A stretch of 64,000 bases of DNA from Thermodesulfobacteriota bacterium (GCA_049323935.1 JBMONN010000009.1:11216-75215); one strand, 5' to 3'; positions 10,212 through 36,934 are shown, counted from the stretch's first letter. The notes: generated by a model from the sequence alone, not told the origin. Translations and numbers: made by a program.

Positions 10212-10217
10212 CTCGAG

Positions 10218-10235
10218 TCGGAAGTGTGCTTCCGA
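10218..10235. terminator. Hairpin between convergent genes (possible bidirectional terminator)
   Basis: TCGGAAG-tgtg-CTTCCGA, a perfect 7-bp stem between the RR stop (10211) and the rlmB stop (10267). No U-run on either strand. Confidence 0.3.
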
Positions 10236-10266
10236 TAATGAGGGCTGCTCCTCCGTTCGTGGGGGA

Positions 10267-14801: not shown

Positions 14802-14848
14802 TCTCGGCCCGGCTGGTAAATTTTATTGACCGAGGAGAAGAGAAAAGG

Positions 14849-17101: not shown

Positions 17102-17248
17102 GTTCCGGCAGCCGGCCGCTGCCAGCGATTTCTGCTTGACATTTCCATGCCGCTGTGACCACTAATAAAAGACGGAAAGGCGGAACACAGTGGTCATGAG
17201 CGGGTTGCGTTCCGGATCATGAAATGAGCAGAGCGGCCTGGTTGCATA

Positions 17249-19479: not shown

Positions 19480-19660
19480 TCCTCATCAGGTACTCCTTTG
19501 CATGGCACGCATGTGTCTAATTTGCGCATTTCTGTCTTGACATTGGTGCCTAAAATAGACATCTCGGGCTGACGTTTTCGTATTTCCTATTCTCGACATC
19601 CTGTCTGTATCCTTTCAATTTTACTTTGTTTTTTTTGTATTTGTCAGGTTGAGCATATTG

Positions 19661-19676
19661 TGGCATGTGTTTTGGA
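19661..19676 (+). promoter_or_regulatory. Weak sigma-54-like promoter upstream of the Trx-like/che genes
   Basis: TGGCAT-N5-TTGGA. Spacing is correct, but the conserved -12 GC is GG. Confidence 0.2.
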
Positions 19677-19727
19677 CATCCTGAAGATGTGATGGCATTG
19701 ACATCCACTTTTTTCCGGAATCCTCCC

Positions 19728-20108
19728 ATGCTGACAATTCTTGATCAGGATCTTTATGAAAACGAGGTGATGCAGGCAGACCGGCCGGTTCTGCTCTGTT
19801 TTTTTTCATGCGCATTTTTTTCACGCGAAATCAACAGGATGCTGAAGGCGTTGAGTCGAGAATATGCCCTCATAGGATTCTATGCCGTGCCGGAAGAGGA
19901 GCATAGGTTTTTCTTTGAAAAATTTCAATTCATCGGCACTCCTACCTTTATTTTGCTTGAAAGAGGTATGGAGCGGGGACGAATTCTCGGCATGGTTTCT
20001 TTTGATGAGCTCAATGATTTTATTCAAAGCAAAATCAGAGAAAGTCGTAAGAGTAACTTGCCGTTTACTGAAAAAAGCCCGGCGGCTGGCTGGTCGCAAT
20101 GTGCGTGA
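19728..20108 (+). CDS. Thioredoxin-fold protein lacking the CxxC motif
   Basis: L.D..Y..EV...D.PVLLCFFS ... FYAV..EE ... KFQF.GTPTFILLERG follows the thioredoxin pattern, but WCGPC is replaced by SCAFF. Start is uncertain (19692 or 19728). Confidence 0.55.
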   Translation: MLTILDQDLYENEVMQADRPVLLCFFSCAFFSREINRMLKALSREYALIGFYAVPEEEHRFFFEKFQFIGTPTFILLERGMERGRILGMVSFDELNDFIQSKIRESRKSNLPFTEKSPAAGWSQCA

Positions 20109-20143
20109 CCTGATGGTGTTTAAGTGCAAATCAAGGGGAATAT

Positions 20144-20743
20144 ATGGCCTTTACCTTTTTTTTCCGAGATCTGCCGGTATTGGAACATGCGGTGGAGCAC
20201 ACCATCAGACTGGCTCTGGGCCGGCAGCGGATCAAGGTCTGGGATGCCGGCTGCGCCCTGGGACAGGAGGCATACACCCTGGCCTTTCTTTTTGCCGAGC
20301 GGCTGGGCTCTGCCTTCAACAACCTCTACCTGCATGCCACCGATTATGACAGCGCCAATAATTTCGGCGACATCGTTCGGCAGGCAAGCTACCGGTACGA
20401 CGAACTGCAACGGATACCTCCGGTGATTTTTAGCAGATATTTTGACAGGCAGGCCAATGACCGCTTTCGGGTCTCTGAAAAGATCAGAGCCCGGGTCTTT
20501 TTTCAGTATCACGATCTGCTGACCCTGCAGCCGGTCGGTTCTGATTACGCCCTGATCGTGTGCAAGAATGTTCTGCTCCATTTCAACCCCGAGTCCCGGC
20601 TCCGGGTGCTCGGGATGTACCACCAGTCCCTCTGCCCAGGCGGCTATCTCGCCATGGAACATACCCAGATGATGCCGTCCGAGCTCGATCATCTCTTTGA
20701 ACAGGTTGTGCCGGATGCTCGGCTGTACAGAAGAATCCAGTAA
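20144..20743 (+). CDS. CheR-type SAM-dependent methyltransferase, catalytic domain only
   Basis: [40 protein letters not shown] and GGYLAMEH match the CheR C-terminal domain. The N-terminal helical domain is absent. Confidence 0.8.
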
Positions 20744-20874
20744 AGAAGAAGTCATTGATGAGCGCCGTCCCGCCCATGACGGTCATTATGAAGCATATGA
20801 AACGTCCGGTGAGAGAGAAGGATGATGAAAATCCTCCGGGCAATGACGTCGAAACCCGACATCAGGAGAAAGAC

Positions 20875-23376
20875 ATGAACTGGTTCTACAACATGACATT
20901 ACGGGGAAAGCTGCTGGCAGGATTTGTTGCGGTGGCAATGATCGCTGCCATCATTGGCGGGGTGGGGATCTACAATATTCGAAAGATTGATAACGCCGAC
21001 ACCATGCTTTATGAAAAAATGACTGTTCCCCTGGGAGAAGTGGCACAGATTTCCATTGCCTTTCAGCGGATTCGGGTCAATGGTCGGGATATCATTGCTG
21101 CCAGTTCGAACGAGGAAAAACAGAAATTTGCAGGGCTCATAAAAGAGCTGCGCACAATCATCGACAAGGAGGCTGTGGAGTTCGAAAAGACGATTCTGAC
21201 CGCTGAGGGACAAAGTCTTTTCGAAGAGTTCAAGCAGACGAGAACCTCCTATGGACCTTTACTCGATCGAGTGGTGGCCCTGGCCATGGCGGATAGAGAC
21301 GACGAGGCGACAGCTCTTCTGCAAGGTGAGGCCGGCGTAGCCGCCCGCGCCGAGCAGGAGGCAATTGACAAATTGTTGGAGTCGAAGATCGAGCAGGCCA
21401 GGCTGACAGCTGAACAGAATACCGTTGACGCCAACCGGGCCAGCACCATCATGACCGCCCTGCTGGTTATGGGTGTTCTTCTTGCCGTTGGACTTGGTCT
21501 TTTTATCGCCCGCATCGTCATGAGGCAGCTCGGCGCTGATCCCAAAGAAGTGGGCGAGATCGCCAATCTGGTGGGCAAGGGTGATCTGAGCCGGGAGATA
21601 GACCTTGTCGCCGGCGACAGCAGCAGCGTCATGGCGGCGATGAAAAAGATGGTCGAGGCCATCCGCGCCCTGAGCAATGACGCCTTTATGCTGGCCGAGG
21701 CGGCGGTGGCCGGCAAGCTCGCCACCCGGGCCGATGCCTCCAGGCATCAGGGCGATTACCAGAAGATCGTCATCGGTGTCAACGACACCCTCGATGCGGT
21801 GATCGGTCCGTTGAACGTGGCCGCTGAATACGTGGATCGCATCTCGAAGGGCGATATCCCGCCGATGATCACCGACAACTATAACGGTGACTTCAACGAA
21901 ATCAAGAACAACATCAATAATATGCTCAGGACGATGAACGACCTGCTGAGCCAGACGGATAGTATCATCCGGGCGGCGGCGGACGGCGAACTTGACAAAC
22001 GGGCCGATGCCACCCGGTTTGTCGGCAGCTGGCAGCAATTGGTCAAGGGCATCAACGATATTGTGACCAATATCGTCAATCCATTGATGGTCACTTCCGA
22101 TTATGTTGACCGGGTATCCAAAGGCGATATGCCGCCAATCATCACAGACATCTATAAAGGGCAGTATAACCTGATAAAAAACAACCTGAATATCCTTATC
22201 GAGGCAACAAACAGCATCATTGCCAATGTCCGGCAGGTGTCCCAGGGCAACTTGATGGTGGAGCTCAAAAAGCGCAGCGACAACGACGAGCTGATGCAGT
22301 CATTGTCCGCCATGGTTGCCAATTTGAAAGAAGTCGCTGCCAGCGCCAAGCAGGTATCCCAGGGCAACTTGATGGTGGAGCTCAAAAAGCGCAGCGACAA
22401 CGATGAACTGATGGAATCTTTATCAGATATGGTGGCCAAGTTGAAAGAGGTGGTCATGGAGGTGCAGACCGCGGCGGATAACGTGGCGGCCGGCGCCCAG
22501 GAGATGTCGGCCACTGCCCAGAATATGTCGCAGGGCGCCACCGAGCAGGCGGCGAGCGCCGAGGAGGTTTCCTCCAGCATGGAACAGATGGCATCGAACA
22601 TCCGCCAGAACACCGACAACGCCATGCAGACGGAAAAAATTGCGGTAAAGAGTGCAGCGGACGCCCGTGAGGGCGGCAAGGCGGTCAGTGAGACGGTGAC
22701 GGCGATGAAGCAGATCGCCACCAAGATCTCGATCATCGAGGAGATCGCCCGGCAGACCAACCTGCTGGCGTTGAACGCCGCCATCGAGGCGGCCCGGGCC
22801 GGCGAACACGGCAAGGGCTTTGCCGTGGTCGCCTCCGAGGTGCGCAAACTTGCCGAACGCAGTCAATCGGCGGCGGGCGAGATCAGCAAGCTGTCAACCT
22901 CAAGCGTGGCGGTTGCCGAGCAGGCGGGTGAGATGCTGAACAAGATGCTGCCGGACATCCAGCGCACCGCCGAGCTGGTCCAGGAGATCAGCGCGGCGAG
23001 CAAGGAACAGGACGCCGGAGCAGAACAGATCAACAAGGCGATTCAGCAGCTCGATCAGGTCATCCAGCAGAATGCCGGAGCGACCGAGGAGATGGCCTCG
23101 ACCACCGAGGAGCTGTCGAGCCAGGCAGAGCAGTTGAAAGGGACCATTGCCTTCTTCAGCATCGAGGCAGCCGGTCGGCGGCAGCGTTCCTCTGCCGCTC
23201 AACATCATAAAATTGCCCGACCGCAACCGGCCCTGCTTCATCATGCCGCCGCCCCGGCCGGCGGTCATGCTGGCGTCCGTCCGGGCAAGAAGGATGACGC
23301 CATTCATCTCGAGCTGACGGCCGCTAACGCGAAAACCGGTGTTGATCAGCTTGATGAGGAATTTGAGAATTATTAA
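20875..23376 (+). CDS. Methyl-accepting chemotaxis protein with extended HAMP-like repeat array
   Basis: TM + 4-helix-bundle-like sensor + TM2/HAMP. Several repeats ([28 protein letters not shown] / [28 protein letters not shown]). Signalling domain [44 protein letters not shown] before ATG 20875. Confidence 0.9.
22234..22467 (+). repeat. 117-bp (39-codon) tandem duplication inside the MCP gene
   Basis: CAGGTGTCCCAGGGCAACTTGATGGTGGAGCTCAAAAAGCGCAGCGACAACGA... at 22234 recurs at 22351. Encodes [31 protein letters not shown] twice. Confidence 0.85.
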
Positions 23377-23522
23377 CAGCAACGGATAGTAATGAGTTGG
23401 TTGTCGTCGGTCTTGCGAACCACTGGTGATTCGTCATGGGCGGCAAGGGATTGCCGCCCGGCCGTTGTAACCGATCAACGGCTCAGGCGCCTCCATCTTT
23501 CAGCGACAAGGAGATAATCCAA

Positions 23523-24050
23523 ATGAGTGTAGCGACAATTACCCAAACCGTGCAGTATCTCACCTTCAAACTGGCTGAGGAGGTTTTCGCCCTCGATGTG
23601 GCCAAGGTGCGGGAGATTCTTGAATTGGCGACCATCACCAAGGTGCCGCAGACGCCGGCCTTCATGCGCGGGGTCATCAATCTGCGGGGCAGGGTGGTGC
23701 CGGTCATTGATCTGCGACTCACCTTCGGCATGAGTCGTACCGAGCAGACGGTGGACACCTGTATCATCGTGGTCGAGGTGGATGTCGGCGGTGAGATGAT
23801 CGTCCTCGGCGTGCTGGCCGATTCGGTGCAGGAGGTAGTGGAGATGGAGCCGGAACAGATCGAACCGGCCCCCCACATCGGCACCAGGCTCAACACCGAA
23901 TTCATCAGAGGCATGGGCAAATTGAATAACGATTTTGTCATGATCCTTGATATCGACAGGGTTTTTTCCTCGGCTGATCTGCTGGCCCTGACCGGCGGGG
24001 TGGTCGATGGGCAGCAGCAGGATGTGCAGGTGGAGGCGTCTGCGTTCTGA
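23523..24050 (+). CDS. cheW: Chemotaxis coupling protein CheW
   Basis: YLTFKLAEEVFALDVAKVREILE...VPQTP.FMRGVINLRG.VVPVIDLR pattern. AAGGAG RBS before ATG 23523. Confidence 0.88.
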   Translation: MSVATITQTVQYLTFKLAEEVFALDVAKVREILELATITKVPQTPAFMRGVINLRGRVVPVIDLRLTFGMSRTEQTVDTCIIVVEVDVGGEMIVLGVLADSVQEVVEMEPEQIEPAPHIGTRLNTEFIRGMGKLNNDFVMILDIDRVFSSADLLALTGGVVDGQQQDVQVEASAF

Positions 24051-24196
24051 ATGATTTAGGCCTCAAATGGTGGTGTTTACGCGACTGCGCCGCGAGAAAA
24101 AGGTTTTGGTCAACGCCGGAAAAAGTATAGGATGAATAGGGGAGAATGGAGAGCGGTTCCGTTTCGCTTTTTTTTATCTGAACAGGCGGAGAATAT

Positions 24197-26296
24197 ATGA
24201 TGTCCCAACACGACGCCCTGCAGGACCTGATTGACCTCCCCAAATTTCAGAATCTGTTGGACAGTCTTTATGCGGTGGTCGGTATTACCACGGCTGTCAT
24301 TGATCTGACCGGCAATATTCTGATAATCTCCGGATGGCAGGATATTTGTGTCAGGTTTCATCGGATCCACCCCCTTAGTCAGGAACAATGCCGGGAAAGT
24401 GACAGGACAATCACTCACGGGTTGTCATGCGCATCCGGTCATGTCCAGATCACCTGTCCCCGTGGCCTGACCGACGTGGCCATTCCGCTGGTCATCGAAG
24501 GCGTTCACCTTGCCAATGTCTTTACCGGCCAGTTTTTTCTTGCCCCACCGGACCGCGACCATTTCCGGCAACAGGCAAAGGTGTTCGGTTTCGACGAAGA
24601 GACCTACCTCGCCGCCTTGGATCGGGTGCCGGTTATCAGTCAGGAGAAACTCGAGCAGTACCTTGTTCTGCTTGCCAATCTGGTCGAATTCATGGCCATG
24701 CAGGGATTGCAACACCTGCGCAGTCTCCGAGCCCAGGAGGAATTGCGAGAACGGGAAACCCAGTACCGCAATCTCGCCAATGCTGGTTCGGCTTTGATCT
24801 GGACATCGGGAGTGAATAAGCTATGCAATTTTTTCAACCAGCCCTGGCTTGATTTCACCGGCAGGAGCATGGAACAGGAGCTGGGCAACGGCTGGGTACA
24901 GGGGGTCCATCCCGACGATCTGGAGCGTTGCCTGAAAACCTATACCACCGCTTTTGACCGGAGAGAACCTTTTGACATGGAATACCGACTCCGGCACCAC
25001 AGCGGCTGCTATCGCTGGATTCAGGATGTCGGTACGCCCAATTTCAACAGTAAAGGCGAATTTGTCGGCTATATCGGCTACTGTTTTGACATTACCACCC
25101 GCAAGAGGGAGGAAGAGGAAAACGCACAGCTGCAGGCCCGGCTCAACCAGGCCCAGAAGATGGAGGCCATCGGTGTGCTGGCCGGTGGTATTGCCCATGA
25201 CTTCAACAACATTCTCGGCCCCATCATCGGCTATACCGAGATTGCCCGGGAGGACGCGGATTCTGATTCCCAGCTTGCTTATGATCTCGATCGTGTCCTG
25301 GCCTCGGCTCATCGCGCCAAGGATCTGATCAGACATATTCTCACCTTCAGTCGGCAATCCGGGGAGGAGCGCATACCCCTCAAAATTCAACCGCTGCTGA
25401 AGGAATCACTGAAGATGCTGCGGGCATCGATTCCGGCCACCATCACCATCAGGAAAGATGTTTCTCCCCGCTGCGGGGTCGTGCTGGCCGACCCGAGTCA
25501 GGTCCATCAGATCATCATGAACCTCTGCACCAATGCCTTTCATGCCATGGAGATGACCGGCGGCGTCCTTTCCGTGAGCCTGAAAGAGAAAGTCGTTGAT
25601 TCGCATGCCCCGGACGCGGGTGCACTTGTGCCGGGCGATTATATCGAATTGACCGTCAGTGATACGGGCAATGGCATTGGACCGGATATTTTCGACCAGA
25701 TATTTGATCCTTATTTCACCACCAAGGAGATCGGCAAGGGGACGGGATTGGGTTTGGCCATTGTCAGTGGCATCATCAAAAGTTATGGTGGCGCTGTAAC
25801 CGTTGAGAGCGTTCTTGGTCAGGGCGCCACCTTTCGGGTTTATTTTCCAGTGATCCATGAGGAAGCGGGAAAACATGACGACCAACCTGTGGTGATATCG
25901 GGTGGCAGTGAACAGATTCTCTTTGTCGATGATGAAGAGATTCTGGCGAAAATGAGCAGAAAAATGCTGGAGCGGATGGGCTATGCGGTCACTGTCCATA
26001 CCAGCGGCAGCGAGGCCCTGGCTGTCTTCATGGAAGATCCCGACCGTTTTGATCTGGTGATTACCGACCAGACCATGCCCGGCATGACGGGAATCGAACT
26101 GGCCAAGCAAATCCTTGCGGTCAGGCCGGTTCTGCCGATCATCCTCTGCACCGGTTTCAGTTCCGTTGTTGATGAGGAGGACGTCAGGGCCGCCGGGATC
26201 AGGGAGTTCGCCCTGAAACCGCTTTCCCGGGAGGTGATCGGCCGGCTGATCAGAAAAATGTGTGATGCCGCTGCGCACGTGTCAATTGGGCAATAG
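24197..26296 (+). CDS. Hybrid sensor histidine kinase: PocR - PAS - HisKA - HATPase - REC
   Basis: PocR-like N-terminus (LQ.LLDS......I..AVIDL.GN.L...G....C...H......C.ESD...[17 protein letters not shown]). H-box [12 protein letters not shown]-boxes DTGNGI and GTGLGLA. C-terminal receiver (ILFVDDE...[12 protein letters not shown]...KP). Confidence 0.88.
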
Positions 26297-26445: not shown

Positions 26446-27966
26446 CTAGAGCCCGTCTGTTTTCAGGTGCCGTTCAAGACCGGCGTGCTGGATGATCAAC
26501 TTAGAAAATTTTCCTGCCAGGCGGCGGAGATCGCTATCGGAAAGGCGGTCGGTATCGGTCATGCGGACCGTGGTGGTGCGGCCGGCGTTGTCCAGCGGTT
26601 GCCAGCGGCAAAAGAAACGGTCGTTGAGGGCGCCGGCAAAACAGATGACGGTGCGCGTCTGGCGGGCCGTGGCCAGGTGCTGACAGCAGGAGTCATAGCC
26701 GAAAAAGATATCCGCCTGATCGATCAGGGCGGAAAGCATGCCGATCCCGCCCTGGACACAGATCAGCCCCTTTGTGAAAACCGGATGGCTGCGGGTGAGA
26801 TCTTTTTCGGAAAGCCGGGCTGTGGCAAGGCCCCGATTCTCCATGGCCTCCATCAGTTTCGCTGCCCGTTCCCTCTCCTCCGGATGGCAGCCGCTGTCAA
26901 GGATGACAAGTGTTTTATCCTGGCGCAGCAGCAGGGAGAGCAGTTCTTCCTCGAAGGGATCGGGCAACCGTTTGCCGGCGTCGTTGCCAACCCCGAGGTT
27001 GATGACGATTTTTGCCGTGTCGTCGGGAAATGCGGCGAGAAAAGCACGAACGGCCTGCTGGTGGACCGGCCGGATGGCGATGGACGGCGGGAGCTGGCAC
27101 TTTTCGTTCAACAGATCATTGAGCCAGTCGTTGGTCAACCTGCTCAGGCGGTGCGAACTGTCCTCGGCAAATTCCCGTGAGGGGAAATAGCAGTACCAGT
27201 GATCGTCGACAAAGGGCAGCAGGCCGAGCTGGCTCAGTCTGCTGTCCGGATCAACAAGCAGGGTTCTGCCGGCGGCAAGCCCCTGACGCTCCTTTTCCAG
27301 CAGATGGTAGAGGGAGGTAAAATACACCAGTCGGCCGACCAGACCGCCGTCCCGCTGGTAGTGCACTTTGGTCCAGTGGACATCGGGGAGGCCGGCAAAG
27401 AGTTCCGCCAGGTGCTGCGGGCCGAAGACAATCAGTTCCGCCGCCGGGAAACTGCGGCGCAGGCGGTGGATGAGAATGGAGGTGATGGCGACATCGGCGC
27501 CGACGGTGACCCGGGAGAGGATGAGGATTTTGCGGATCGCGTTCTGCAGAGCGGGAGGGAAGGGCCGTCGCTGTTTGATCAGACGGTAGCGGGCAAGGAG
27601 CTGTTCTTCGTCATGAAAGCCGAGGCGGAGCAGCAGTTCATGCATGACTCGCCCTTCGTTTCGTTGCCGGAGCATGGTCAGCATGCGCGCCAGCACCCGG
27701 CTGGCCAGGTCGGCGCCGCTGGCGCTGAAATCGTCGCAGAGCGGTTCAATGATGTTTTTATAGATGCTGACCACCGCAGCACGACGCAGCGGACCGCTTT
27801 CTCCGGCGAGGGCGGTGGCGCAGAGACGTTCGATGAAGGAAAAATCAGGCGGCTTGCCGGTGGCTGCGGCCTCCATGAAAAAACGGCTTGCCTCCTCGAT
27901 GGCTGCTTCATCCGCCAGTGGAAAGAGGGCGTCCTGGAAGCTCTGTCGTGCTGGGGCTCTGTCCAT
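26446..27966 (-). CDS. Glycosyltransferase family 9-like protein with ~130-aa N-terminal extension
   Basis: ILILSRVTVGADVAITSILIHRLRRSFP.AELIVFG and IVINLGVGNDAGKRLP...GGIGMLSALIDQADIFFGYDSCCQHLA resemble the two halves of a heptosyltransferase fold. The N-terminal third has no motif I recognise. Confidence 0.55.
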   Translation of the reverse strand: MDRAPARQSFQDALFPLADEAAIEEASRFFMEAAATGKPPDFSFIERLCATALAGESGPLRRAAVVSIYKNIIEPLCDDFSASGADLASRVLARMLTMLRQRNEGRVMHELLLRLGFHDEEQLLARYRLIKQRRPFPPALQNAIRKILILSRVTVGADVAITSILIHRLRRSFPAAELIVFGPQHLAELFAGLPDVHWTKVHYQRDGGLVGRLVYFTSLYHLLEKERQGLAAGRTLLVDPDSRLSQLGLLPFVDDHWYCYFPSREFAEDSSHRLSRLTNDWLNDLLNEKCQLPPSIAIRPVHQQAVRAFLAAFPDDTAKIVINLGVGNDAGKRLPDPFEEELLSLLLRQDKTLVILDSGCHPEERERAAKLMEAMENRGLATARLSEKDLTRSHPVFTKGLICVQGGIGMLSALIDQADIFFGYDSCCQHLATARQTRTVICFAGALNDRFFCRWQPLDNAGRTTTVRMTDTDRLSDSDLRRLAGKFSKLIIQHAGLERHLKTDGL

Positions 27967-27990
27967 ATCCTTGTGGTCGTGAGAGAGGGT

Positions 27991-28184
27991 GCAAAAGAAA
28001 AAAGTCGTTTGAAAATACCACTATAGACGGCCGTTGCGGTGTGGGCAAATAAATTGTGCGGTCATGAGGGAAAACTGCCGGCATGGTCCGGCGCCACGGT
28101 GTCGAGAAAGCGGAGGCGTACAGGTGGTACGTCGAGCATTTCGCGATCCCGCCGTAACGCGGGAGATCAGACTTTTTGCGACGC
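27991..28184. repeat. TIR-bounded palindromic element, copy B (degenerate)
   Basis: Right end GACTTTTTGCGACGC (28170-28184) is identical to 45578-45592. Centre GGCGTAC-aggtg-GTACGTC parallels GGCGTAC-ttgg-GTACGCC at 45530-45547. Left end is GCAAAAGAAAAAAGTC. Confidence 0.4.
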
Positions 28185-28196
28185 TTTCATCTTTGG

Positions 28197-28664
28197 TTAG
28201 CAGCTGCGTGCCTCAGGGCGATAAAGAAAACACGGTCGGCGTGCCCTGCCATGCTCCCGGGGAAAAAAGAAGAGAGGCAGGCCGATCAGCAGGTTGCGGA
28301 GGATGGCGAGGTAGACCGGGCTTGCGTTGCCGGTGCCGAAACAGCCGCAGTCAACCGGCAGCAGCAGGTAACCCTCCGACAGATAAAGAAGAAGAAGGGT
28401 AAAGAGGAGATAGAGTGCGCCCATGATCCGGGCAAGTAAACCTGCTCTGATGCCGGAGAGGGCGAAAAGGCCGAGGGCGACTTCCAACGGCGGATACCAG
28501 CGGGCGATGAGGATCATCTGGTCAAGGTTGAGAATACCCTTTTCCAGCAATGTTTCGAGGAGATCGCCCACCCCCGGCGACTTTATCTTGATGGCACCGG
28601 CAGTGACCAGTAAACCGGCGGCCAGATAATAATCGGTGATGATCAGCAGACCGAGAACCTTCAT
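28197..28664 (-). CDS. MauE/DoxX-family redox-associated membrane protein
   Basis: Four predicted TM helices and the CGCFG motif (PVDCGCFGTG). Its start shares one nucleotide with the stop of the upstream MCP (TGATG). Confidence 0.75.
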   Translation of the reverse strand: MKVLGLLIITDYYLAAGLLVTAGAIKIKSPGVGDLLETLLEKGILNLDQMILIARWYPPLEVALGLFALSGIRAGLLARIMGALYLLFTLLLLYLSEGYLLLPVDCGCFGTGNASPVYLAILRNLLIGLPLFFFPREHGRARRPCFLYRPEARSC

Positions 28665-30100
28665 CAGGCATCCGTCGCTGCCTCGCCGGTGTCGTTTCCT
28701 TCCCAGAATCGCATCAGGGTGTGCATCATGTGGTGCAGGCGCTCCACCTGTTCCTTGACATCCTGAACGGTGGCCGATGCCTCCTGCGACATGGCGGCCT
28801 GCGATTGCACCATATCGTTGATCGAGGCGACCGAAGCGCGGATCTTTTCCTCTGTCACCGATTGCCGTTTGTCGGTTTCCATAATTTTTGTCATCTGAAA
28901 CACCACGGCATCAGCGGCGTTGCTGACCTCGGCAAAGGACGTTTTCAGGGTGTCGACCATGGCGACTCCGGTCGTCACTTTTGTGTCAAGTCGCTTGATG
29001 ATCGCGGCGACCATGCTCGATGTTTCAGCGGTGCGGGTGGCAAGGTTGCGCACCTCGGCAGCCACCACGGCAAAGCCGGCGCCGGCCTCACCGGCCCGGG
29101 CCGCCTCGACCGCGGCATTCAAGGCAAGAAGGTTGGTCTGAAAGGCGATTTCCTCGATGTCTTTGACCAGCGCCGAGATCTCTTTGTCCGCGTCCACCAC
29201 CTCCCGCATGGCGCCTACCACATCCTCGATGGAGCCGCTGGAGCGGGTGGCGGTCCGTTGCAGATCGTTTGCCGCACTCTCCGCCGTTCGGGCCGCTTCG
29301 AGATTTTCTTCAGCCTGGGTTGTCATCTGCGTCATGGTCGAGGAGATGCTGTCGAGCGCCGCCGATGATGAGCTTGTCTCGGTGGCGAGCTGAATCGACA
29401 TGGCGTTGATGTTGTCAATGGCATCCATCAGTCCCTGGGTGGCGTTGGTCGATTCCTGACCCATCCAGTCAAGTTGACGGGAGACGCGTGCGATCATGGA
29501 GAAGATGATGGCACCGATGATGGTCAAGAGGACGATGGAGCCGAGCAGGATGGTGTTGAGTCGGCGGCTGACATCGAGCACATGCCCCATGGCGGTGTTG
29601 TGGCTGGCCGAGCTTTTTTCGGTGATGGCGGCAAGTGCCTTGCGGAGAATGTCGTTTTCCTTGTCAAAGGCCGCGGTCCATGCTGTCTCCTCAGTGTATT
29701 CCTGGTTGACACTGGCCTCCACCATGTTGAGGCCGGCCTCGAAGGAACTCAGGTAGGTTTTTTTGGCCGCGGCGATCTGTTTTGCCGCCTCATCATCGGT
29801 CTGATTGAGTCTGGCAAGCTCGGTGAATTGCTCGATGATTTTTTTGTTGATCGTCTCGATGGCGGCCTGTTCGCTTTTGGTACCGGCGGCGCGGGAGACG
29901 TTGAATTTCTCGATGATATGGGTGACCTGCCCTTTGATCTCGATGGCGATTTTGGTTTCCGGATAGACCTGCCGGGTCACCTTGCCCACCGCTCTTGTAA
30001 ACTGTTTGCTTGCCATCATGGCATAGACGATGATGGTGCCGGAGACGACGAAGAGCAGGAGAAAAAAGAGATAGAGTTTGCGTTTGCCGCCAAATTTCAT
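28664..30100 (-). CDS. Methyl-accepting chemotaxis protein (4-helix-bundle-type periplasmic sensor, no obvious HAMP)
   Basis: TM1 [19 protein letters not shown], ~190-aa helical sensor, TM2, [42 protein letters not shown]. Start taken at the ATG with GGAG 6 nt upstream (30100). 30106 is also possible. The longer track ORF runs through a terminator hairpin. Confidence 0.85.
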
Positions 30101-30141
30101 GAACATCTCCGCCAACGTCCGGTTGCCGGACGTTGCGTTGT

Positions 30142-30183
30142 AAAAAAAAAGCAGAGGAGATGAGATTGGCATCTCCTCTGCTT
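30142..30183 (-). terminator. Rho-independent terminator after the periplasmic rhodanese gene
   Basis: On the minus strand: AAGCAGAGGAGAT-gccaatctc-ATCTCCTCTGCTT (13-bp perfect stem) followed by a U9 run. Confidence 0.85.
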
Positions 30184-30226
30184 GTCGGGCTGGTCGGAAG
30201 CCGGAATTTTTCTGTCGCAACCGGTT

Positions 30227-30955
30227 TTATTCGGTCGGCAGGCCCGCCCGTTTCCAGGCGAGCATGCCGCCGTCGAGAATGGCGAGATCGGTGTAGCCCT
30301 TCATGTGAAGAAATTTGCCGGTGATGCCGACCTGCTTGCCGGCATGGTCCATGATGACGATTTTTTTGTCCTTCGGCAGGGAGGTGAACTGTTCGCTCAG
30401 ATCATCGAGGGGAATGGCGACGGCGTTCTTGATGCGGCCCACGTCTTTGACCTCCTCGCCGCGGATGTCGAGGAGCACGGCGCTATCCGCCATGGCCTGG
30501 ACATCAACAGGGGAGAGCCGCGGCAGATCGACCTTGGGATAATCGACCTTTTTTTCCACCGGATAGCCTTTACCGGCCCAGGCCGGCAGCCCTTCATTGT
30601 AAATCATGACGTTGGTGTAGCCGAGAGCGGTGGCTGCGTTGGCGGCAACCTTGCTTTTCGAACATTTCGGCCCCTTGCAGTAGAAGATGAGCAGGGCATT
30701 TTTGTCGGCCGGCAGCAGCGGGTTGTCGGCGGTCACTTTGCTGCTCGGAATATTGATGGAGCCGGCAATGTACATTTCGTCATGTTCGATGGCGCTTAAG
30801 GCGTCGATCAGCACAAGTGGTTCCTTGGCGTCGATTTTCTGTTTCAGCTGATCGGTGGTGATCAGGACATCTGCGGCCAGAATCGGTTTGGCAGAGAGAA
30901 ACAGGGCGAGGGCCGCCATCACTGACATGAGTAGAGAAAAACGCAGTTTTTTCAT
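30227..30955 (-). CDS. Periplasmic tandem-rhodanese protein (Cys paralogue of the selenoprotein)
   Basis: Signal peptide MKKLRFSLLMSVMAALALFLSAKPILA. Domain 1 has loop FYCKGPKCSKS. Domain 2 has VIMDHAGKQ. AGGAG RBS before ATG 30955. The longer track ORF has no support. Confidence 0.85.
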   Translation of the reverse strand: MKKLRFSLLMSVMAALALFLSAKPILAADVLITTDQLKQKIDAKEPLVLIDALSAIEHDEMYIAGSINIPSSKVTADNPLLPADKNALLIFYCKGPKCSKSKVAANAATALGYTNVMIYNEGLPAWAGKGYPVEKKVDYPKVDLPRLSPVDVQAMADSAVLLDIRGEEVKDVGRIKNAVAIPLDDLSEQFTSLPKDKKIVIMDHAGKQVGITGKFLHMKGYTDLAILDGGMLAWKRAGLPTE

Positions 30956-31182
30956 GATTCCGATCTCCTGTGGTGCTGGGTGGTAACGTGAGAGTAGCGG
31001 GACAGAACGGCTCTTCGCAGGTCGCCTCTGGTTGCGGCGGGTTATTGACGAATGGGCCGCCCTGTATGTCTGAACATCAGTATAGGGACAAAAAAAGGGA
31101 AAAATCAAAAAAAAAAGTGATGCGACAGGGTTTTTTTTGGAACAATAAAATATTTTTGTGTTTCTTGAGAGATAATATTTAT

Positions 31183-31211
31183 TTGAGTTCATTTCTTGGG
31201 TGTGCTAAGCT
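31183..31211 (+). promoter_or_regulatory. Putative sigma-70 promoter for the rhodanese selenoprotein gene
   Basis: TTGAGT, 17 nt, TAAGCT, in an AT-rich divergent intergenic region. Confidence 0.3.
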
Positions 31212-31305
31212 GGACTAATGTGACATTTTGTCTCAGTATTGTCGGGCGAATGCACATTGTGGTGCTGTTGCGGCGCAAAATATAAATAATAATGTTGGAG
31301 GGAAC

Positions 31306-32628
31306 ATGCAGAAAAAAATTTTACAGAAATTCGTGCCGGTGATGATTTTTTTTGCGTTGCTGGTCGGCTGCGGCGCCAAAAATGGTGAGGTAGCGCCGGC
31401 GGCCGGCAATGACGTGGGGAAAACCGTTGTCCAGAAGGAGCAGAACGTCTACAAGGGCGAGGTGACGGGCAAGTCAGAGAAGGCAAAAACCATTTCCATG
31501 AAGGTTGGCAAAGGCGAGGATGCCAAGAGCGTCATGGTCAAGTTTGACGACCAGACCACCGGCCTCGAGTTTGCCGAAAAGGGGCAGGCAGCCATCGTCG
31601 AATACCGGATGGTCGGCTCGGACAAGGTTGCCACGGTCATTAAACCGAAACTGGCCGAGCTGCCCAAAGGAACCTCCGAGGCAAAGACCGATTATGTCGC
31701 CGCTCTCATCGCCAAGGGCGGCGCCTATCAGCTCATCGATTCCCGGCCGGCGGGGCGCTTCCATGCCGGCTCTCTGCCGACTGCAGTCAGTATCCCGGTG
31801 GATCAGCTGAAGAAGGAAGGGGCGGGCCTGCTGCCCAAGGATAAAAACACTGAACTGATCTTTTTCTGCGGAGGGCCCACCTGAGGGATGAGCACCGATT
31901 CCGCCGGTCTGGCGGTAAAAGCAGGATACAAGAACGTCAAGGTTTATCTCGAAGGCGCGCCCGGCTGGCAGAAGGCCGGCAATTATGTCGTGGCCAGCAA
32001 TAATTTTGTCGAGAAGGGTAATATCGTCCTCGTTGATCTGCGCAGTGCGGCCGAGTACAATCAGGGGCATATTCCGAGGGCCTACAGCATCCCCTTTGCC
32101 GAACTGGAAGACGCCGAGGATGATTTCCCGGAGAACAAGACGGCGCCCATCGTCTTTTACGGGGACAACGCGGTCAAGGCCTTCAAGATGGCGAAAAAAT
32201 GGGGTTACAAGGGATCCGCTGTCTACGAAGGCGGCATTGCGGCATGGACTACGGCCGGCAAAAACCTCGATACCTCCGCCTCCCCGGATGAAATCGTCTG
32301 GGTCCGTATCCTTGGTCCCGGAGAGATCAGCACCGCTGATTTTCAGAAGGTCATCGATAATCAGCCGGCCGACAAGCTTATTCTCGATGTGCGCACCAAC
32401 GACGAGGTCAAGGACGGCATGTTCCCCGGTGCCGCCCATATCCCGTTGGATGAGCTTGGCGCAAAGATGAATACCCTGCCCAAGGACAGGGAGATTCTTG
32501 TCCACTGCACCACCGGCGCCCGGGCGGAAATGGCCTATGACGAGCTGAAGAAATCCGGCTTCACAGTCCGCTATGTCGTCTGTAATGTGGAGTGTGATGC
32601 CGATGATGGGTGTGAAATCGTTGAATAG
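31306..32628 (+). CDS. Triple-rhodanese lipoprotein, predicted selenoprotein (Sec at codon 193, TGA 31882-31884)
   Basis: Lipobox LLVGC. Track ORFs 31228..31884 and 31888..32628 share a frame and are separated only by TGA-GGG. Read-through [40 protein letters not shown] aligns with FYCKGPK-C-SKSKVAANAATALGYTNVMIYNEGLPAWAGKG of the neighbouring paralogue. The third domain has the canonical loop HCTTGARA. Confidence 0.8.
31882..31915 (+). promoter_or_regulatory. UGA + candidate bacterial SECIS hairpin
   Basis: 16 nt after the UGA: CCGCC-GGUCU-GGCGG (31901-31915), a 5-bp GC stem with a GGUCU apical loop. It can extend by two A-U pairs if U31916 is bulged. Confidence 0.55.
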
Positions 32629-32659
32629 GTAACCGTTGCTCTTTTTCGACCTCTCGGAA

Positions 32660-32701
32660 AGGGGTACCGGACGCGCAGGCGTTCGGTGCCCCTTTTTTTT
32701 T
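32660..32701 (+). terminator. Rho-independent terminator after the rhodanese selenoprotein gene
   Basis: AGGGGUACCG-(14-nt loop)-CGGUGCCCCU, a 10-bp stem with one G-U pair, followed by a U9 run. Confidence 0.85.
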
Positions 32702-32861
32702 GTGTGGTTGCCCCTCTCCGCGCCCTTTCCTGTCAGGCATTGAAAAAAAACTTTTCTTCCGGGTGGCCCCCACCTATAATCAGACCAGCAGACCATACCA
32801 TTATCACTGCTCTCTTATCGCCGCCGTGCGCCCACTTGCCGCAATCAGACAACAGGAGAAA

Positions 32862-34643
32862 ATGCCGATGATGCTTGTCCCCAACATCAAAACCAGGATG
32901 ATTGTCATGATCTGTGTGTCCCTGCTGGGACTGCTCATTGTTTTTCTCAATGCCAACCAAGCGCTTACCCGTAATATCGATATCAGCTCCCGGGTCAAAA
33001 ACGAAAAATTCGTGATGGCCATTGATATCGAAAAATTCAGCGCCGAGGCCCGCAAACTCTCAGCTGATGTGGAGATCAGCGCGACAACCGAATCCCTCGA
33101 CAACCTGGAAAAGGCCAAGGCGGACAAGGCTGCTCTGGCCAAGCGGATCACGGAAATTGCGGCAACCTCGCATAATGAGGAGATGAAAAAGCTGCTTACC
33201 GATCTTGGCAGGATGACGGATCAGGTGCTGGATGCCGGCAAGCGTTGGGTGGAGTTTGCTTTTGCCCAGCAGTATGCCGAATCGTTCGCCGCCGAAGAGG
33301 AGTTCAAGGGGTTGAAAAAGAAATATTTTGATTTGCTGGGGCAATTACAGAAACAGGCTCGTTCCGATCTTGAGCAGTCCCTTGATCTCATTCATTCCCT
33401 CTCCCGGCAGAGCATCCGCATCAATCTGGTCATCTTTTGCATTACCGTGCCTATTGTCCTTTTCCTCTCCGTCTTCACGGTTGTCACCATTGTCCGCCCC
33501 CTGGAAAAAACAGTGCATTTCGCCGAAAAGGTGGCGGCAGGCGATGTCTCCCATCAGCTCGACATCACGACCAAAGACGAATTGGGAGCCATGAGTCGGG
33601 CGTTAAACAATATGGTGCAGAGCCTTGCCCAGAAAAGCGCAGTGGCGGAATCGATCGCCGCCGGTGATCTGCGCTGCGAGGTGGGGATTGCCTCGGCGCA
33701 GGACACCCTGGGTCACTCCCTGAAAAAGATGGTGGAGAACCTGGGGGCCATGATCGAGGATGTTCAGAAAAACGCCGCTCATCTCTCCGTCGCCGCCGAT
33801 TCTCTCTCCGGGCTTTCCATGCACATGGCGGAAGGGGCGGAGGAGATGAGCGCCCAGACCCAGGATGCAACATCCTTTATCCATGATATCAGCGCCCATG
33901 CCCAGAACGTCACCGCCACCGCCCGCAAGATGTCGGAGAACATGGGCGCCATCGCCGAGACGACGGAACGGATGTCCGCCGCCATTCTCGCCATCGGCAC
34001 CAATGCCAGGGACGGGGTTGAGGTGACGGAGGCGGCGATCACCATGTCCGATCGGGCGACCCGGACCATCATGTCACTGCACGAGACGGCCATTGAGATC
34101 GGTAAGGTGACCACCGCCATCAATGACATCACCGAGCAGACCAAGCTGCTGGCCTTGAACGCCACCATCGAGGCGGCCCGGGCCGGCGAGGCCGGTAAGG
34201 GCTTTGCCGTGGTTGCCGGCGAGGTGAAAGAGCTGGCCAAGCAGAGTGCTGTCGCCGCGGAAAATATTGCAACTCTTATCGGCCAGGTGCAGAACAGTAC
34301 CGGCGATGCGGTCCATGTCATCGGCGAGGTGGCCGACACAATCAGGAAGGTGAATCAGTCATCCCGCCAGATCAGTCAGGCGGTGGAAGAGCAGGCCCGA
34401 GAATCGCACGGCATGGCGGTCAGTGTCACTGAGGTCAATGAAGGGGCAAACAACATTGCCGCCGCCATCCGCGAGCTGGCGGCCAAGGCCCATGACACGG
34501 CGACCAATATCAGTGAGGTCAAAACCGTGGTTGATAACAGCACCGAGGGGATCCACAAGATTTCCGGCGCTGCGGCGGAACTGTCGGAACTTGCCGGCCG
34601 GCTGGATGAACTGGTCGGTCAATTTCATCTGGAGCGGTCGTAA
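32862..34643 (+). CDS. Methyl-accepting chemotaxis protein (helical periplasmic sensor + HAMP)
   Basis: CAGGAG RBS before ATG 32862. Two TM segments. HAMP ([41 protein letters not shown]). [41 protein letters not shown]. Confidence 0.88.
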
Positions 34644-34906
34644 TGCATGATGTCCGTATCGCCATTGACGGGGTTGCCGTCGATTTCGAGACGGCACGGG
34701 GGGTGGCGGTGGCCGTTGCCGGCCGGCACGGGGATGAAGAACCCATGCTCATTGCCTGGAGTGACCGGGCGCGGGGCAGGCACTCGCCGAGCTGTGTCAA
34801 ATGCGAGCTGCAGGGTGCGCCGGGCTGGGAGGTCTATGGCCGCAATCATGGCGGCCGGCTGCGCATCAGCGTCAATGAGGATGCCTATGTCTTCATCTAC
34901 GGCTGA
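34643..34906 (+). CDS. Small conserved-looking hypothetical protein, translationally coupled to the MCP
   Basis: Its ATG overlaps the MCP stop (TAATG: stop 34641-34643, start 34643-34645, one shared nt). 87 aa with PMLIAWSDRARGRHSPSCVKCE...PGWEVYGRNHGGRLRISVNEDAYVFIYG. Double stop TGATGA. No family assigned. Confidence 0.55.
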   Translation: MHDVRIAIDGVAVDFETARGVAVAVAGRHGDEEPMLIAWSDRARGRHSPSCVKCELQGAPGWEVYGRNHGGRLRISVNEDAYVFIYG

Positions 34907-35025
34907 TGAAGGATGACCGGCAGCAGCGGTCCGCCTGGTTCAGAGAATCTTGACCTGCATGGTGGTTAATGGTACTGTTGCTGCCGTTTGCCGTTTTTTT
35001 CATCAACCATGAACCCAGGTCTCCG

Positions 35026-35805
35026 ATGGAACAGAACCTCCGACCAGAAAAATCCTTTCCCGAGGGCATGGTCCCGCTGGGGGGATCACCCTTTCGTTTT
35101 TCCTGCCATCCCGGCGTCTCCTGCTTCATGACCTGCTGCCGCAACGTCAATATGCTGTTGTACCCCTATGACATCATTGAACTGAAAAAATGTCTTGGGA
35201 TCACCTCCGGGGAATTTCTTGAGCGCCATGTCCAGGTGGTCCAGGGCGCCAATCCCTTTTTTCCGGCCCTGACCATGAAGATGAACACCGACAACGCCTG
35301 TCCCTTTCTCGGAACCGCCGGCTGCACCGTCTATGAGCACCGGCCGTTGTCCTGCCGCATGTACCCGCTGGAGCGGGGAGTGGATCGCCACCCGGAAAAG
35401 GGCCGGCCGGCTGAGTTTTATTTTCTTACCCATCATGATTATTGCAAAGGGCACGCCGAGAACACGGAGTGGACGGTGAAGGAGTGGCTGCGCGGCCAGA
35501 ATCTTCTCTTTCACAACGCCATGGCCGATCAGTGGGCGGAAATGGATACGCTGTTCGCCGGCAATCCATGGGCCGGGGAAGGGGCAGCCGGCCCCATGCA
35601 GCAATTGGCCTTCATGGTCTGCTACAATATCGACGGGTTTCGGGAGTATGTCCGCCACCACAACCTGTTGTCTCAGTTCAAACTTTCCGGCAGTCGCATC
35701 CGGTCGATTGAAAACGATGATGAAGCGCTGCTCTCCTTCGGTTACGACTGGCTGAAGCTGCTGCTCGTCAACCAGCCGACCCTGCGGCGCCGCCCGGCGC
35801 GGTGA
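35026..35805 (+). CDS. YkgJ-family cysteine-cluster protein
   Basis: FRFSCHPGVSCFMTCCRN ... CPFLGTAGCTVYEHRPLSCRMYP matches the CxxCxxCC-type YkgJ/UPF0153 pattern. Confidence 0.75.
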   Translation: MEQNLRPEKSFPEGMVPLGGSPFRFSCHPGVSCFMTCCRNVNMLLYPYDIIELKKCLGITSGEFLERHVQVVQGANPFFPALTMKMNTDNACPFLGTAGCTVYEHRPLSCRMYPLERGVDRHPEKGRPAEFYFLTHHDYCKGHAENTEWTVKEWLRGQNLLFHNAMADQWAEMDTLFAGNPWAGEGAAGPMQQLAFMVCYNIDGFREYVRHHNLLSQFKLSGSRIRSIENDDEALLSFGYDWLKLLLVNQPTLRRRPAR

Positions 35806-35833
35806 TCCGCTCGCGCGCGGAGGTTGACATTTC

Positions 35834-36178
35834 ATGCAGACGATCAAAAACTATTGTGCCGTTGGTCTCCTTTTTTCTCTGATTGTTGCCCAGCTTGTCG
35901 GCTGCGGCCAGAATGCGCCCTTCGAGTATACCTATACTTCGCCGGACAGCGTCGAGATCCGCTACCAGGATAAAACCTATCAGATTAGCCGAGCCGGAGG
36001 CCCGGACAATCTGCCCTTCACTTATGCCTTTGAGACGGATGGCGATGTCGATCTTGTTTTAAACGGCGAGACCTATGAGCTGGAAAGCCCCTATGACGTC
36101 GATGGCTCACTGAAGAAAAAGAGCACTGGGAAAAAGACGAAAAGGAAGACATCGAGCCGTCGTTCCTCCCCCCGGTAG
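35834..36178 (+). CDS. Lipoprotein of unknown function with Lys/Arg/Ser-rich tail
   Basis: Lipobox AQLVGC. No recognised domain. C-terminus is KKKSTGKKTKRKTSSRRSSPR. Confidence 0.55.
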   Translation: MQTIKNYCAVGLLFSLIVAQLVGCGQNAPFEYTYTSPDSVEIRYQDKTYQISRAGGPDNLPFTYAFETDGDVDLVLNGETYELESPYDVDGSLKKKSTGKKTKRKTSSRRSSPR

Positions 36179-36181
36179 GGC

Positions 36182-36934
36182 TTAGCGGAAAATCTTTTGC
36201 AGCATGTCGGTTGTTCGTTTGGCCGGATCCCGGCGGATGGCCGCCTCTTCGCGGGCGAGAGAGAAGAAGATACCGGCCAGTCCCCCGTTAACGACATGGG
36301 CGGTGAGATCGGCTTTGGCATCCGGGACAAAGGGGATAGCGCGGTAGGAGGCCATGACGCTGTCATAGGTTCTGACCGCCTCGGTTTCGGCCAGTGACTG
36401 CGAGACAATCGGTGTCATTTCTTCTGTCAGTTGCGGGGTGAGTTTTTTCTGGAAATAACGGGTCGCCGCATCCTCAGGACCGTTGTAGATCGCCATGGCA
36501 TCATCGAGGGTCATCTCCGTGATGGCAGCCAGAAACAGCTCCTTGGCTCTGGGGGTTGCCAGTTCCGCGGCCCGGTTAAGGCGAATTTCCAGGTCGTCGA
36601 GCATGGCCGACTTGCCGACCGTTTTTAAGGCATCCCGGACGACGCGCATCTTTTCCGGCAGCGGAATGTGGATTTCGGGATTCAGGTTGAAGCCGTCCGG
36701 ACGGCCGAGCTGGCTGACTACGGTTTCCGTACCCACCCGCAAGGCGTCCTTGAGGCCGACGGTCACGTCACCGACGCTCGGCTGCGAGGTGGAAAGTGAG
36801 CCCGGCGCGGTCCCCTGCAGGGCATCGACCCCTTTCTGCAACCAGCCCGACTGGGCGGGAGTATGGCCCGGAAAAAACAGGCAAGCGGCGAGCAGGGTGA
36901 AGAGGCAGCCGGCACGGGTGATTCGTCTGTTCAT
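36182..36934 (-). CDS. DUF4197 domain protein (secreted)
   Basis: Signal peptide. GLKDALRVGTE.VV..LGR.DGF..NP...IPLPE, NRAAE, DAATRYF, and C-terminal AREEAAIRRDPAKRTTDMLQKIF, the typical DUF4197 pattern. Confidence 0.75.
   Translation of the reverse strand: MNRRITRAGCLFTLLAACLFFPGHTPAQSGWLQKGVDALQGTAPGSLSTSQPSVGDVTVGLKDALRVGTETVVSQLGRPDGFNLNPEIHIPLPEKMRVVRDALKTVGKSAMLDDLEIRLNRAAELATPRAKELFLAAITEMTLDDAMAIYNGPEDAATRYFQKKLTPQLTEEMTPIVSQSLAETEAVRTYDSVMASYRAIPFVPDAKADLTAHVVNGGLAGIFFSLAREEAAIRRDPAKRTTDMLQKIFR

Follow-up and report, generated by a model that had tools for sequence, protein, structure and literature searches.

Introduction

Indirect chemoreception through periplasmic binding proteins is known from E. 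coli, where Tar works with the maltose-binding protein and Trg with the galactose- or ribose-binding protein, and there are kinases which work in this way with TorT or LuxP. Receptors for redox or energy taxis, like Aer and the Desulfovibrio protein DcrA, have their own cofactors (FAD, haem). Sulfur-cycling Desulfobulbia, which include sulfur disproportionators and sulfide oxidisers, live in steep gradients of sulfide and oxidant, and it is their positioning that decides the energy gain. The present study deals with a stretch of 64,000 nucleotides (nt) from a Thermodesulfobacteriota bacterium (GCA_049323935.1, JBMONN010000009.1:11216-75215), referred to as the window, and in particular with a 7.6-kb block of seven genes in it (28197-35805). 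Three of these genes, coding for a double rhodanese (Rhod2), a methyl-accepting chemotaxis protein (MCP1) and a MauE-type membrane protein (MauE), form a conserved trio which could be encoding a sensory complex. In the searchable full-text literature, with few subscription journals in it, no description was found of a rhodanese-MCP-MauE unit or of a kinase with MauE as its input, and none of a receptor for sulfur species in a reduced or intermediate state, polysulfide and thiosulfate among them, cable bacteria included. That MauE-type proteins and rhodaneses are commonly associated, as supposed in the initial annotation of the window, found no confirmation in the literature searched either.

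Among the proteins closest to those of the block is the selenoprotein TsoB, which carries the motif UxxxxU in its rhodanese domain, and rhodaneses with selenocysteine (Sec, U) are catalogued as 'form 1' with the motif UxxS (2026 selenoproteome review, PMC13188914). TsoB corresponds to NCBIfam NF045694, to which NCBI gives the name rhodanese/DsbD fusion-like selenoprotein. From mycobacteria a membrane-associated oxidoreductase complex of DoxX, SseA and SodA is described (Nambi et al. 2015, cited in bioRxiv 10.1101/095448). The block of the window was originally taken for an island built around a selenoprotein, the Sec-containing triple rhodanese Rhod3. Our data show that several modules meet here on the chromosome of a member of the Desulfobulbia (Thermodesulfobacteriota) and that the hub of this junction is the trio, not the selenoprotein.

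Results

Gene neighbourhoods were gathered by looking up homologues of Rhod3, MauE and Rhod2 as exact proteins. Further neighbourhoods came from a scan with the Rhod2 alignment over one genome per GTDB species and from a scan of metagenomes with the MauE alignment, and the loci (cited below by L numbers) were annotated by searching their reading frames with the window proteins. It was found that the order Rhod2, MCP1, MauE on one strand is kept in 22/22 non-redundant loci with a Rhod2 orthologue, and in these 22 loci MCP1 carries the orthologous sensor domain. Identity to the window is 50–95% for the Rhod2 orthologues and goes down to 27% for the MCP1 sensor. With the proteins diverging this far, the distance matrices of the three still correlate closely in pairs (r = 0.93–0.96), which speaks for conservation of the trio. 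In those orthologous loci that were checked, the MCP1 and MauE genes either overlap or lie directly end to end. Additional metagenome contigs have the same order wherever the contig is long enough, and the trio is found in at least five unrelated flanking contexts, for example PfkB-YicC, trp genes and a UvrD helicase gene. It is also carried by a cultured organism, Thiovibrio sp. JS02, with a complete genome (locus CM130715.1:721934-742662). Such an arrangement of the trio is far beyond chance, which is not the case for the whole block. The rhodanese/MauE genes and two chemoreceptors had been proposed as one unit. This holds for MCP1, the synteny of which with MauE and the rhodanese is kept in every orthologous locus, whereas the second chemoreceptor (MCP2) has this position only in a few close relatives. 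Judged from the neighbourhoods, the link of a rhodanese/MauE module to a chemoreceptor is a real and conserved feature.

The partnership of the three genes outlives rearrangement. In a low-G+C permuted variant (L067:2115-6141, also L066 and L070; JGI sample Ga0272440) the order is a Rhod2-like gene, a gene for a Porin_O_P-like outer-membrane porin of 376 amino acids (aa), MauE and MCP, MauE being 34–37% identical. The porin added here is anion-selective, which suggests that the ligand would be anionic and would have to cross the outer membrane. In the high-G+C, Myxococcota-like locus L029 a rhodanese and an MCP form a pair with a 4-nt overlap; MauE does not follow, and a DUF2807 protein is next. 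From this locus the rhodanese-MCP pair appears to be deeper than the link to MauE. In L051 a Rhod2 homologue lies, co-operonic, directly after a PAS histidine kinase and a sigma-54 regulator with no MCP there, and the rhodanese thus again seems to be paired with a transducer, a kinase standing in the place of the MCP. A decayed copy was seen in L058:5203-6450, where a 101-aa C-terminal remnant of MCP1 precedes MauE beside a DUF5619 gene and Rhod2 is absent.

Rhod2 (30227-30955, minus strand, 242 aa) is the first gene of the trio. It codes for a secreted protein with a signal peptide and two stretches of PF00581, the two rhodanese domains scoring 101 bits. The loop of domain 1 reads FYCKGPKCSKS, in which C93-K-G-P-K-C98 makes up a CxGPxC motif. 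In domain 2 an Asp replaces the catalytic Cys in an invariant DHAGKQ loop, and this domain is non-catalytic. Rhod2 is a Cys protein in 22/22 Desulfobulbia loci, and position 6 of the loop is Cys everywhere in the Rhod2 type but in L029, where a TGA stands for Sec. Searches against PDB gave generic rhodaneses only, none of them with a CxGPxC loop. The family rhodanese_LYCAU (NF041203) was matched at 72.9 bits by Rhod2 and at 39.2 bits by Rhod3, both below its cutoff of 115.

The spacer between the Rhod2 stop and the MCP1 start contains a G+C-rich hairpin of 14 pairs followed by a T run (30149-30183, minus strand). Comparable hairpins, most of them with a T run, exist in this spacer in most of the orthologous loci. 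The hairpin is probably a partial terminator or attenuator which would yield more rhodanese than receptor, and its place after the rhodanese gene resembles the layout of operons in which the gene for the binding protein comes first. In three loci the spacer is just 11–21 nt long, so that co-transcription of Rhod2 and MCP1 would be obligatory there. Between the spacer hairpin and the ribosome-binding site of MCP1 lies a perfect palindrome, AACGTCCGG-CAA-CCGGACGTT (30101-30148, minus strand), which is also present in L024 and partly altered in L010; other clade-A loci have a conserved GATATTT...AAATATC inverted repeat at this place. These elements may be operators or may serve translational control. 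On the other side of Rhod2, an A+T-rich divergent promoter region (30956-31305) separates it from Rhod3. Weak sigma-70-like matches occur on both strands of this region, and no sigma-54 promoter was found in it upstream of Rhod3.

MCP1 (28664-30100, minus strand, 478 aa) matches MCPsignal (PF00015) at 112.5 bits against a cutoff of 34.6. It has two transmembrane (TM) segments with a helical, cysteine-free periplasmic sensor of about 165 aa between them, and its start agrees with 20 orthologues. Pfam detects no HAMP domain in MCP1 and the sequence after TM2 also has no HAMP pattern. The alignment of the sensors of the 20 orthologues (A4) contains conserved polar residues and no conserved Cys. 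As MCP1 is without cysteine, any redox signal would have to come via its partners. Against Pfam and PDB the sensor gave only sub-threshold noise (CHASE3, 4HB_MCP_1, TipAS) and no PDB relative.

A profile made from alignment A4 was found to cover the whole sensor of MCP2 at 27 bits. It also matched rhodanese-coupled MCPs of other lineages over the full length, at 27 bits in L029 and 39 bits in L066/L067, and it gave -10 bits with the canonical 4HB_MCP_1 receptor of the window (20755). Comparison of the MCP1 and MCP2 sensor alignments by hhalign gave a probability of 94.9% (E 4.7e-8). With BLASTP no significant match between these two sensors was obtained, and the kinship is visible to profile methods only. 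One sensor family therefore seems to recur beside rhodaneses with a C-x4-C/U loop, in MCP1, MCP2, L029, L066 and L067. The histidine kinases adjacent to Rhod3 were considered as further sharers of this sensor and were ruled out, as none of them matched the A4 profile.

MCP2 (32862-34643, plus strand, 593 aa) has both HAMP (51.2 bits) and MCPsignal (108.6 bits). Among the loci examined it is restricted to the window, L001, L008, L010 and L024, and it is a variable insertion and a facultative part of the block. Coupling to CheA/CheW and methylation by CheR/CheB are expected traits of an MCP and are predicted here for MCP1 and MCP2. A CheW gene (23436-24047) is present in the window, with a further MCP, 5 kb from the block.

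MauE (28197-28664, minus strand, 155 aa; PF07291 40.4 bits against a cutoff of 27) is the last gene of the trio, and its start ATG has one base in common with the MCP1 stop (TGATG). It is a four-TM protein of the MauE subfamily with an invariant DCGCFG before TM4, and its Cys-x-Cys motif, C105-G106-C107, is invariant in 18 sequences. The subfamily is narrow: one database has 25 clusters of it, and a search of 1.84e9 proteins gave 19 representatives at E<=1e-10. No mau (methylamine dehydrogenase) genes were found in any locus examined, the neighbours of MauE being the rhodanese and the MCP. Among more distant MauE proteins there are fusions to thioredoxin-like CxxC domains. An AlphaFold model of MauE from 18 sequences gave a helical pattern at low confidence, with a predicted local distance difference test (pLDDT) of 53. 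Downstream of MauE the window codes for a protein of about 500 aa (26446-27966, minus strand) with a weak C-terminal match to heptosyltransferases (GT9). Such a gene follows MauE in most clade-A loci and may be backbone or a further partner.

In one locus a member of the MauE subfamily (P0269; E 1e-45; motifs YYLAA, PIDCGCFG and ILRN) is fused to HisKA and HATPase_c in a protein of 438 aa. It is encoded at L052:122-1438 (GCA_964551285.1, contig CAZKDC010000095.1, 1616 bp), and the gene directly upstream ends in ...LIQFWEGHH, which is the C-terminal motif QFWEG of MCP1. Since MauE is the only membrane module of this kinase, the fusion argues that MauE could be working as a signal-input module. 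The fusion also puts the C-terminus of MauE in the cytoplasm, so that the DCGCFG loop would face the periplasm, on the side of Rhod2.

Rhod3 (31306-32628, plus strand, 440 aa) is a triple-rhodanese lipoprotein (lipobox LVGC) with three stretches of PF00581 across a TGA readthrough, together scoring 147 bits. The in-frame TGA was confirmed at 31882-31884. It lies in the loop FFCGGPT-U-GMS, that is C188-G-G-P-T-U193. The middle domain is non-catalytic, the third has a canonical C401-TTGAR, and a C-terminal Cys pair (C430/C436) is conserved. The catalytic Cys at the loop start is present in domain 1 of Rhod2 (C93) and in domains 1 and 3 of Rhod3 (C188, C401) and absent from domain 2 of both; by fold and catalytic Cys both proteins are predicted sulfurtransferases. 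The codon in the Sec column of Rhod3 was read as TGA for ten of the related loci and as TGC for L003/L004, and many full-length database forms of about 440 aa are read as Cys forms. The TGA is a genuine Sec/Cys position, and the call of a selenoprotein appears sound.

A hairpin resembling a selenocysteine insertion sequence (SECIS), CCGCC-GGUCU-GGCGG (31901-31915, plus strand), begins 16 nt past the UGA. This GGUCU-loop stem of 5 bp is invariant in nine Sec loci, synonymous sites included. In L029 there is an independent Sec form of Rhod2 (9836-10654, loop FYCKGPK-U, TGA at 10202-10204), the stop of which overlaps the start of a HAMP-containing MCP. It has a GGUCU-loop hairpin equally far past its UGA, and this hairpin is absent from L028, an Anaeromyxobacter relative with Cys at the Sec position. 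The stem is short, its invariance leaves no covariation, and its folding z-score is not significant. In an Rfam search of 27900-36300 no SECIS model was matched, the only near-match being the weakly ctRNA-like terminator of Rhod3. The SECIS call for this candidate thus rests on conservation, not on covariation. A tRNA search of the window found none, and no sel genes or tRNA-Sec lie nearby.

Rhod3 adjoins the trio in 8/23 loci only, being divergent from it in the window, L001, L010, L013 and L024 and co-directional upstream in L018, L020 and L049. It also exists without any MCP or MauE (L005) and, in L003, L049 and L051, with a PAS histidine kinase and a sigma-54 regulator as neighbours. Perfect sigma-54 promoters, TGGCAC-N5-TTGCT, precede Rhod3 in L003 (9835)/L004, L020 (2084) and L051 (6047, minus strand). 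With Rhod3 facultative and also occurring away from MCP and MauE, the idea of the selenoprotein as the hub of an island was dropped. A strong intrinsic terminator of 19 pairs with a T run (32656-32697, plus strand) stands 3' of Rhod3 and would make it monocistronic, and this speaks against Rhod3 and MCP2 as one transcription unit.

The remaining genes of the block were called as in the initial annotation, the coordinates and identities of all seven being upheld when each call was re-checked. The gene for an 87-aa DUF5619 protein (34643-34906, plus strand; PF18505 97.4 bits against a cutoff of 25) overlaps the MCP2 stop with its start (TAATG), and this junction as well as the TGATG junction of MCP1 and MauE was confirmed. 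The protein is cytoplasmic with an SCVKC motif, and its sole solved relative is AF_1514 (PDB 3C0F, E 2.5e-5), to which no function is assigned. The gene directly before DUF5619 differs between relatives, being that of Rhod3, of MCP2 or of a histidine kinase. The coupling of the 87-aa protein to MCP2 is accordingly secondary, and DUF5619 was dropped as an accessory of MCP2. A gene for a YkgJ-type CxxCxxCC protein (35026-35805, plus strand, 259 aa; PF03692 37.9 bits against a cutoff of 23) is backbone next to dnaE and syntenic with DUF5619 in most clade-A loci. The occurrence of DUF5619 and the YkgJ-type gene goes along with that of the backbone and of the triple-rhodanese gene and not with that of MCP2.

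In L001:13028-14956, L005:11303-13126 and L003:3263-5239 a GHL10 (PF02638) gene coding for about 610–660 aa stands between the gene for DUF5619 and that for the CxxCxxCC protein. The window (34907-35025) and L024 are without it, which would mean a deletion in the lineage of the window. After the block comes a predicted lipoprotein of 114 aa (35834-36178, plus strand; lipobox LVGC) with a Lys/Ser/Arg-rich C-terminal tail, which matched no Pfam or NCBIfam family. Upstream of the block is a signalling-rich stretch (14798-26296). It contains genes for a TonB-dependent receptor (14798-17098), a PAS sigma-54 activator (17821-19476), the 873-aa MCP with 4HB_MCP_1 and two HAMP_2 repeats (20755-23373), the CheW already mentioned and a PocR-PAS hybrid histidine kinase (24197-26293).

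Discussion

The gene content of the block, the conservation of the trio, the alternation of Sec and Cys, the MauE-kinase fusion and the homology of the sensors are observed in the loci themselves. From them we infer a ligand, a redox relay, a physical complex and a taxis output. We give a probability of about 0.5 to the reading that the trio encodes one periplasmic chemoreceptor complex for sensing sulfane sulfur or thiol redox state. Rhod2 would take sulfane sulfur or oxidising equivalents from anionic periplasmic species such as polysulfide and thiosulfate at Cys93/Cys98. The use of Sec at position 6 of the Rhod2-type loop in some lineages marks this position as redox-active. The periplasmic Cys105-Gly-Cys107 of MauE would then exchange its thiol/disulfide or persulfide state with Rhod2. 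MCP1 would read the state of MauE, of Rhod2 or of both, and signal via its HAMP-less domain to CheW/CheA and so to motility, the overlapping genes giving MCP1 and MauE in a fixed ratio. Rhod3, with its thiol/selenol centres (C188/U193, C401, C430/C436), and MCP2 could be extending the same sensing theme. The TsoB-like x4 loop and the fusions of MauE to thioredoxin-like domains are consistent with a rhodanese and a MauE that undergo thiol-disulfide or persulfide exchange with each other.

A wider proposal can be made only tentatively, and we hold it to be possible rather than probable. Rhodanese and MauE would be an unrecognised input device, a persulfide/thiol-redox relay through which a dedicated family of helical sensors on chemoreceptors, and in one lineage a MauE-fused kinase, would be informed of sulfane sulfur outside the cell (polysulfide, thiosulfate, S0). 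It would then be the first molecularly defined sulfur-compound chemoreceptor of the sulfur-disproportionating and sulfide-oxidising Desulfobulbia.

Several points weigh against the sensing complex. Its support is wholly genomic. MCP1 is cysteine-free, and a redox signal would need a partner to reach it. The hairpin in the spacer of Rhod2 and MCP1 could terminate transcription fully, and the two genes would then be uncoupled in their expression in some species. The pair in L029 lacks MauE, so MauE may maintain the rhodanese and not sense, and in L050 and L051 there is a Rhod2 homologue without an MCP. The MauE-kinase fusion is known from one metagenomic contig of 1.6 kb and could be an artefact of assembly or deletion, and the AlphaFold model of MauE is too poor for a check of the geometry. 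The close correlation of the distance matrices of the three proteins also follows from plain vertical inheritance.

It could be that the operon merely co-expresses its genes, MCP1 binding a small ligand of its own while Rhod2 and MauE act as a periplasmic pair for sulfur handling or detoxification. The MCP1 sensor does look like a normal helical ligand-binding module with its polar residues conserved, a terminator-like hairpin stands between Rhod2 and MCP1-MauE in many loci, and L050 and L051 have the rhodanese alone of the two. However, in nearly every locus the gene which MauE overlaps is that of the MCP and not that of the rhodanese, L052 has a fusion of MauE to a histidine kinase, all three genes are retained under a permuted order, and related sensors recur beside related rhodaneses in different phyla. 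We regard co-regulation alone as rather unlikely for these reasons. The sensing could also be as proposed and its output other than motility. Che-like pathways with such outputs are known from Myxococcus and Geobacter, and here one would control gene expression, pili or biofilm. The absence of HAMP from MCP1 would be in line with it, as would the relatives which swap or supplement MCPs with histidine kinase/sigma-54 systems and have the perfect sigma-54 promoters 5' of Rhod3. In the window, however, CheW and a further MCP only 5 kb off are compatible with ordinary chemotaxis and nothing identifies a specialised Che-like cluster, which makes this variant improbable.

The initial annotation had suggested taxis toward sulfur or selenium species. 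Taxis toward sulfur or redox conditions remains reasonable given the conserved trio, whereas no specific pointer to selenium as the signal was found. A selenium-specific module, in which the rhodaneses carry or sense selenite, selenide or selenotrisulfide and the receptors steer towards selenium, could appeal to Rhod3 being a selenoprotein, to the occurrence of rhodanese domains in selenium metabolism and to weak, far sub-threshold matches to the rhodanese domain of MnmH (SelU), the tRNA 2-selenouridine synthase. Yet in either type of rhodanese Sec and Cys alternate freely at one column, which redox-active residues usually do, the ever-present partner Rhod2 contains Cys in all 22 Desulfobulbia loci, and the window has no sel genes or tRNA-Sec nearby; we consider such a module very unlikely. 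Chance or hitch-hiking has to be thought of because MCPs are numerous and the region is rich in signalling genes, with another MCP, CheW, a PocR hybrid kinase and a sigma-54 activator within 12 kb in the window. This explanation, to which we give next to no weight, stands only for the placement of MCP2, itself a variable insertion. It fails for the trio, which is kept in 22/22 loci and at least five unrelated contexts with sensor identity down to 27%, and of which a permuted-order variant and a kinase fusion exist.

The trio would be an accessory-protein-dependent chemoreceptor, and there is a credible chance that it stands for a new class of sensory input. If the sensing reading is true, the trio gives a testable molecular handle on sulfur or redox taxis and a signalling role to the poorly understood membrane proteins of the MauE/DoxX type. 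It would also define a new sensor-domain family, common to MCP1, MCP2 and the rhodanese-coupled receptors of other lineages, and account for the existence of rhodaneses that have a second Cys or Sec in their active loop. Genetics is feasible in the cultured carrier Thiovibrio sp. JS02. If that reading is wrong, the trio is still a strict three-gene synteny marker, and the boundaries of what belongs together are corrected for annotation.

Compared with the described systems, the genes of the block have likenesses on several sides. Likened by motif, Rhod3 with its U-G-M-S within PF00581 agrees with the catalogued Sec rhodaneses, so that a Sec rhodanese is not new in itself; the catalogue (PMC13188914) does not describe the triple-domain lipoprotein architecture of Rhod3 or its signalling neighbourhood. 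The rhodanese part of the TsoB profile (about positions 45–160) matches Rhod2 at 63.8 bits (E 8e-18) and Rhod3 at 57.1 bits (E 9e-16), both far below the cutoff of 805. Like TsoB with its two chalcogen residues spaced by x4, Rhod3 has CxxxxU, Rhod2 CxxxxC and L029 CxxxxU, and in both cases a rhodanese is combined with a membrane thiol-disulfide module. Rhod2 and Rhod3 differ from TsoB in that the DsbD domain is absent and the membrane partner, MauE, is a separate gene. A chemoreceptor is not described for TsoB.

The mycobacterial DoxX-SseA-SodA complex, likened here by its description in the citing source, is similar in that a membrane protein of the DoxX/MauE kind and a rhodanese-type sulfurtransferase serve in thiol homeostasis. 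As far as that description goes, it differs in its cytoplasmic rhodanese, its role in detoxification and the absence of a signalling protein. MauE/MauD of the methylamine dehydrogenase clusters share with the trio PF07291, the Cys-x-Cys and the recurring periplasmic thiol-disulfide link. Unlike the MauE of mau clusters, the MauE of the trio belongs to a narrow Desulfobulbia subfamily always beside an MCP, once fused to a kinase, with mau genes absent. As with Aer and DcrA, what the chemoreceptor reports would be a redox state instead of a nutrient ligand of the classical sort, but MCP1 is without a cofactor motif or Cys and would need two accessory thiol proteins for this. To chemoreception by binding proteins the trio is alike in two ways: a secreted protein is proposed to present the signal to the periplasmic domain of the transducer, and the gene of the secreted partner comes first with a putative attenuating hairpin after it. 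It differs in that the secreted partner is a rhodanese with a C-x4-C/U loop and not a Venus-flytrap protein, its binding to the receptor being predicted here, and in having a third component, the membrane thiol protein MauE, translationally coupled to the receptor.

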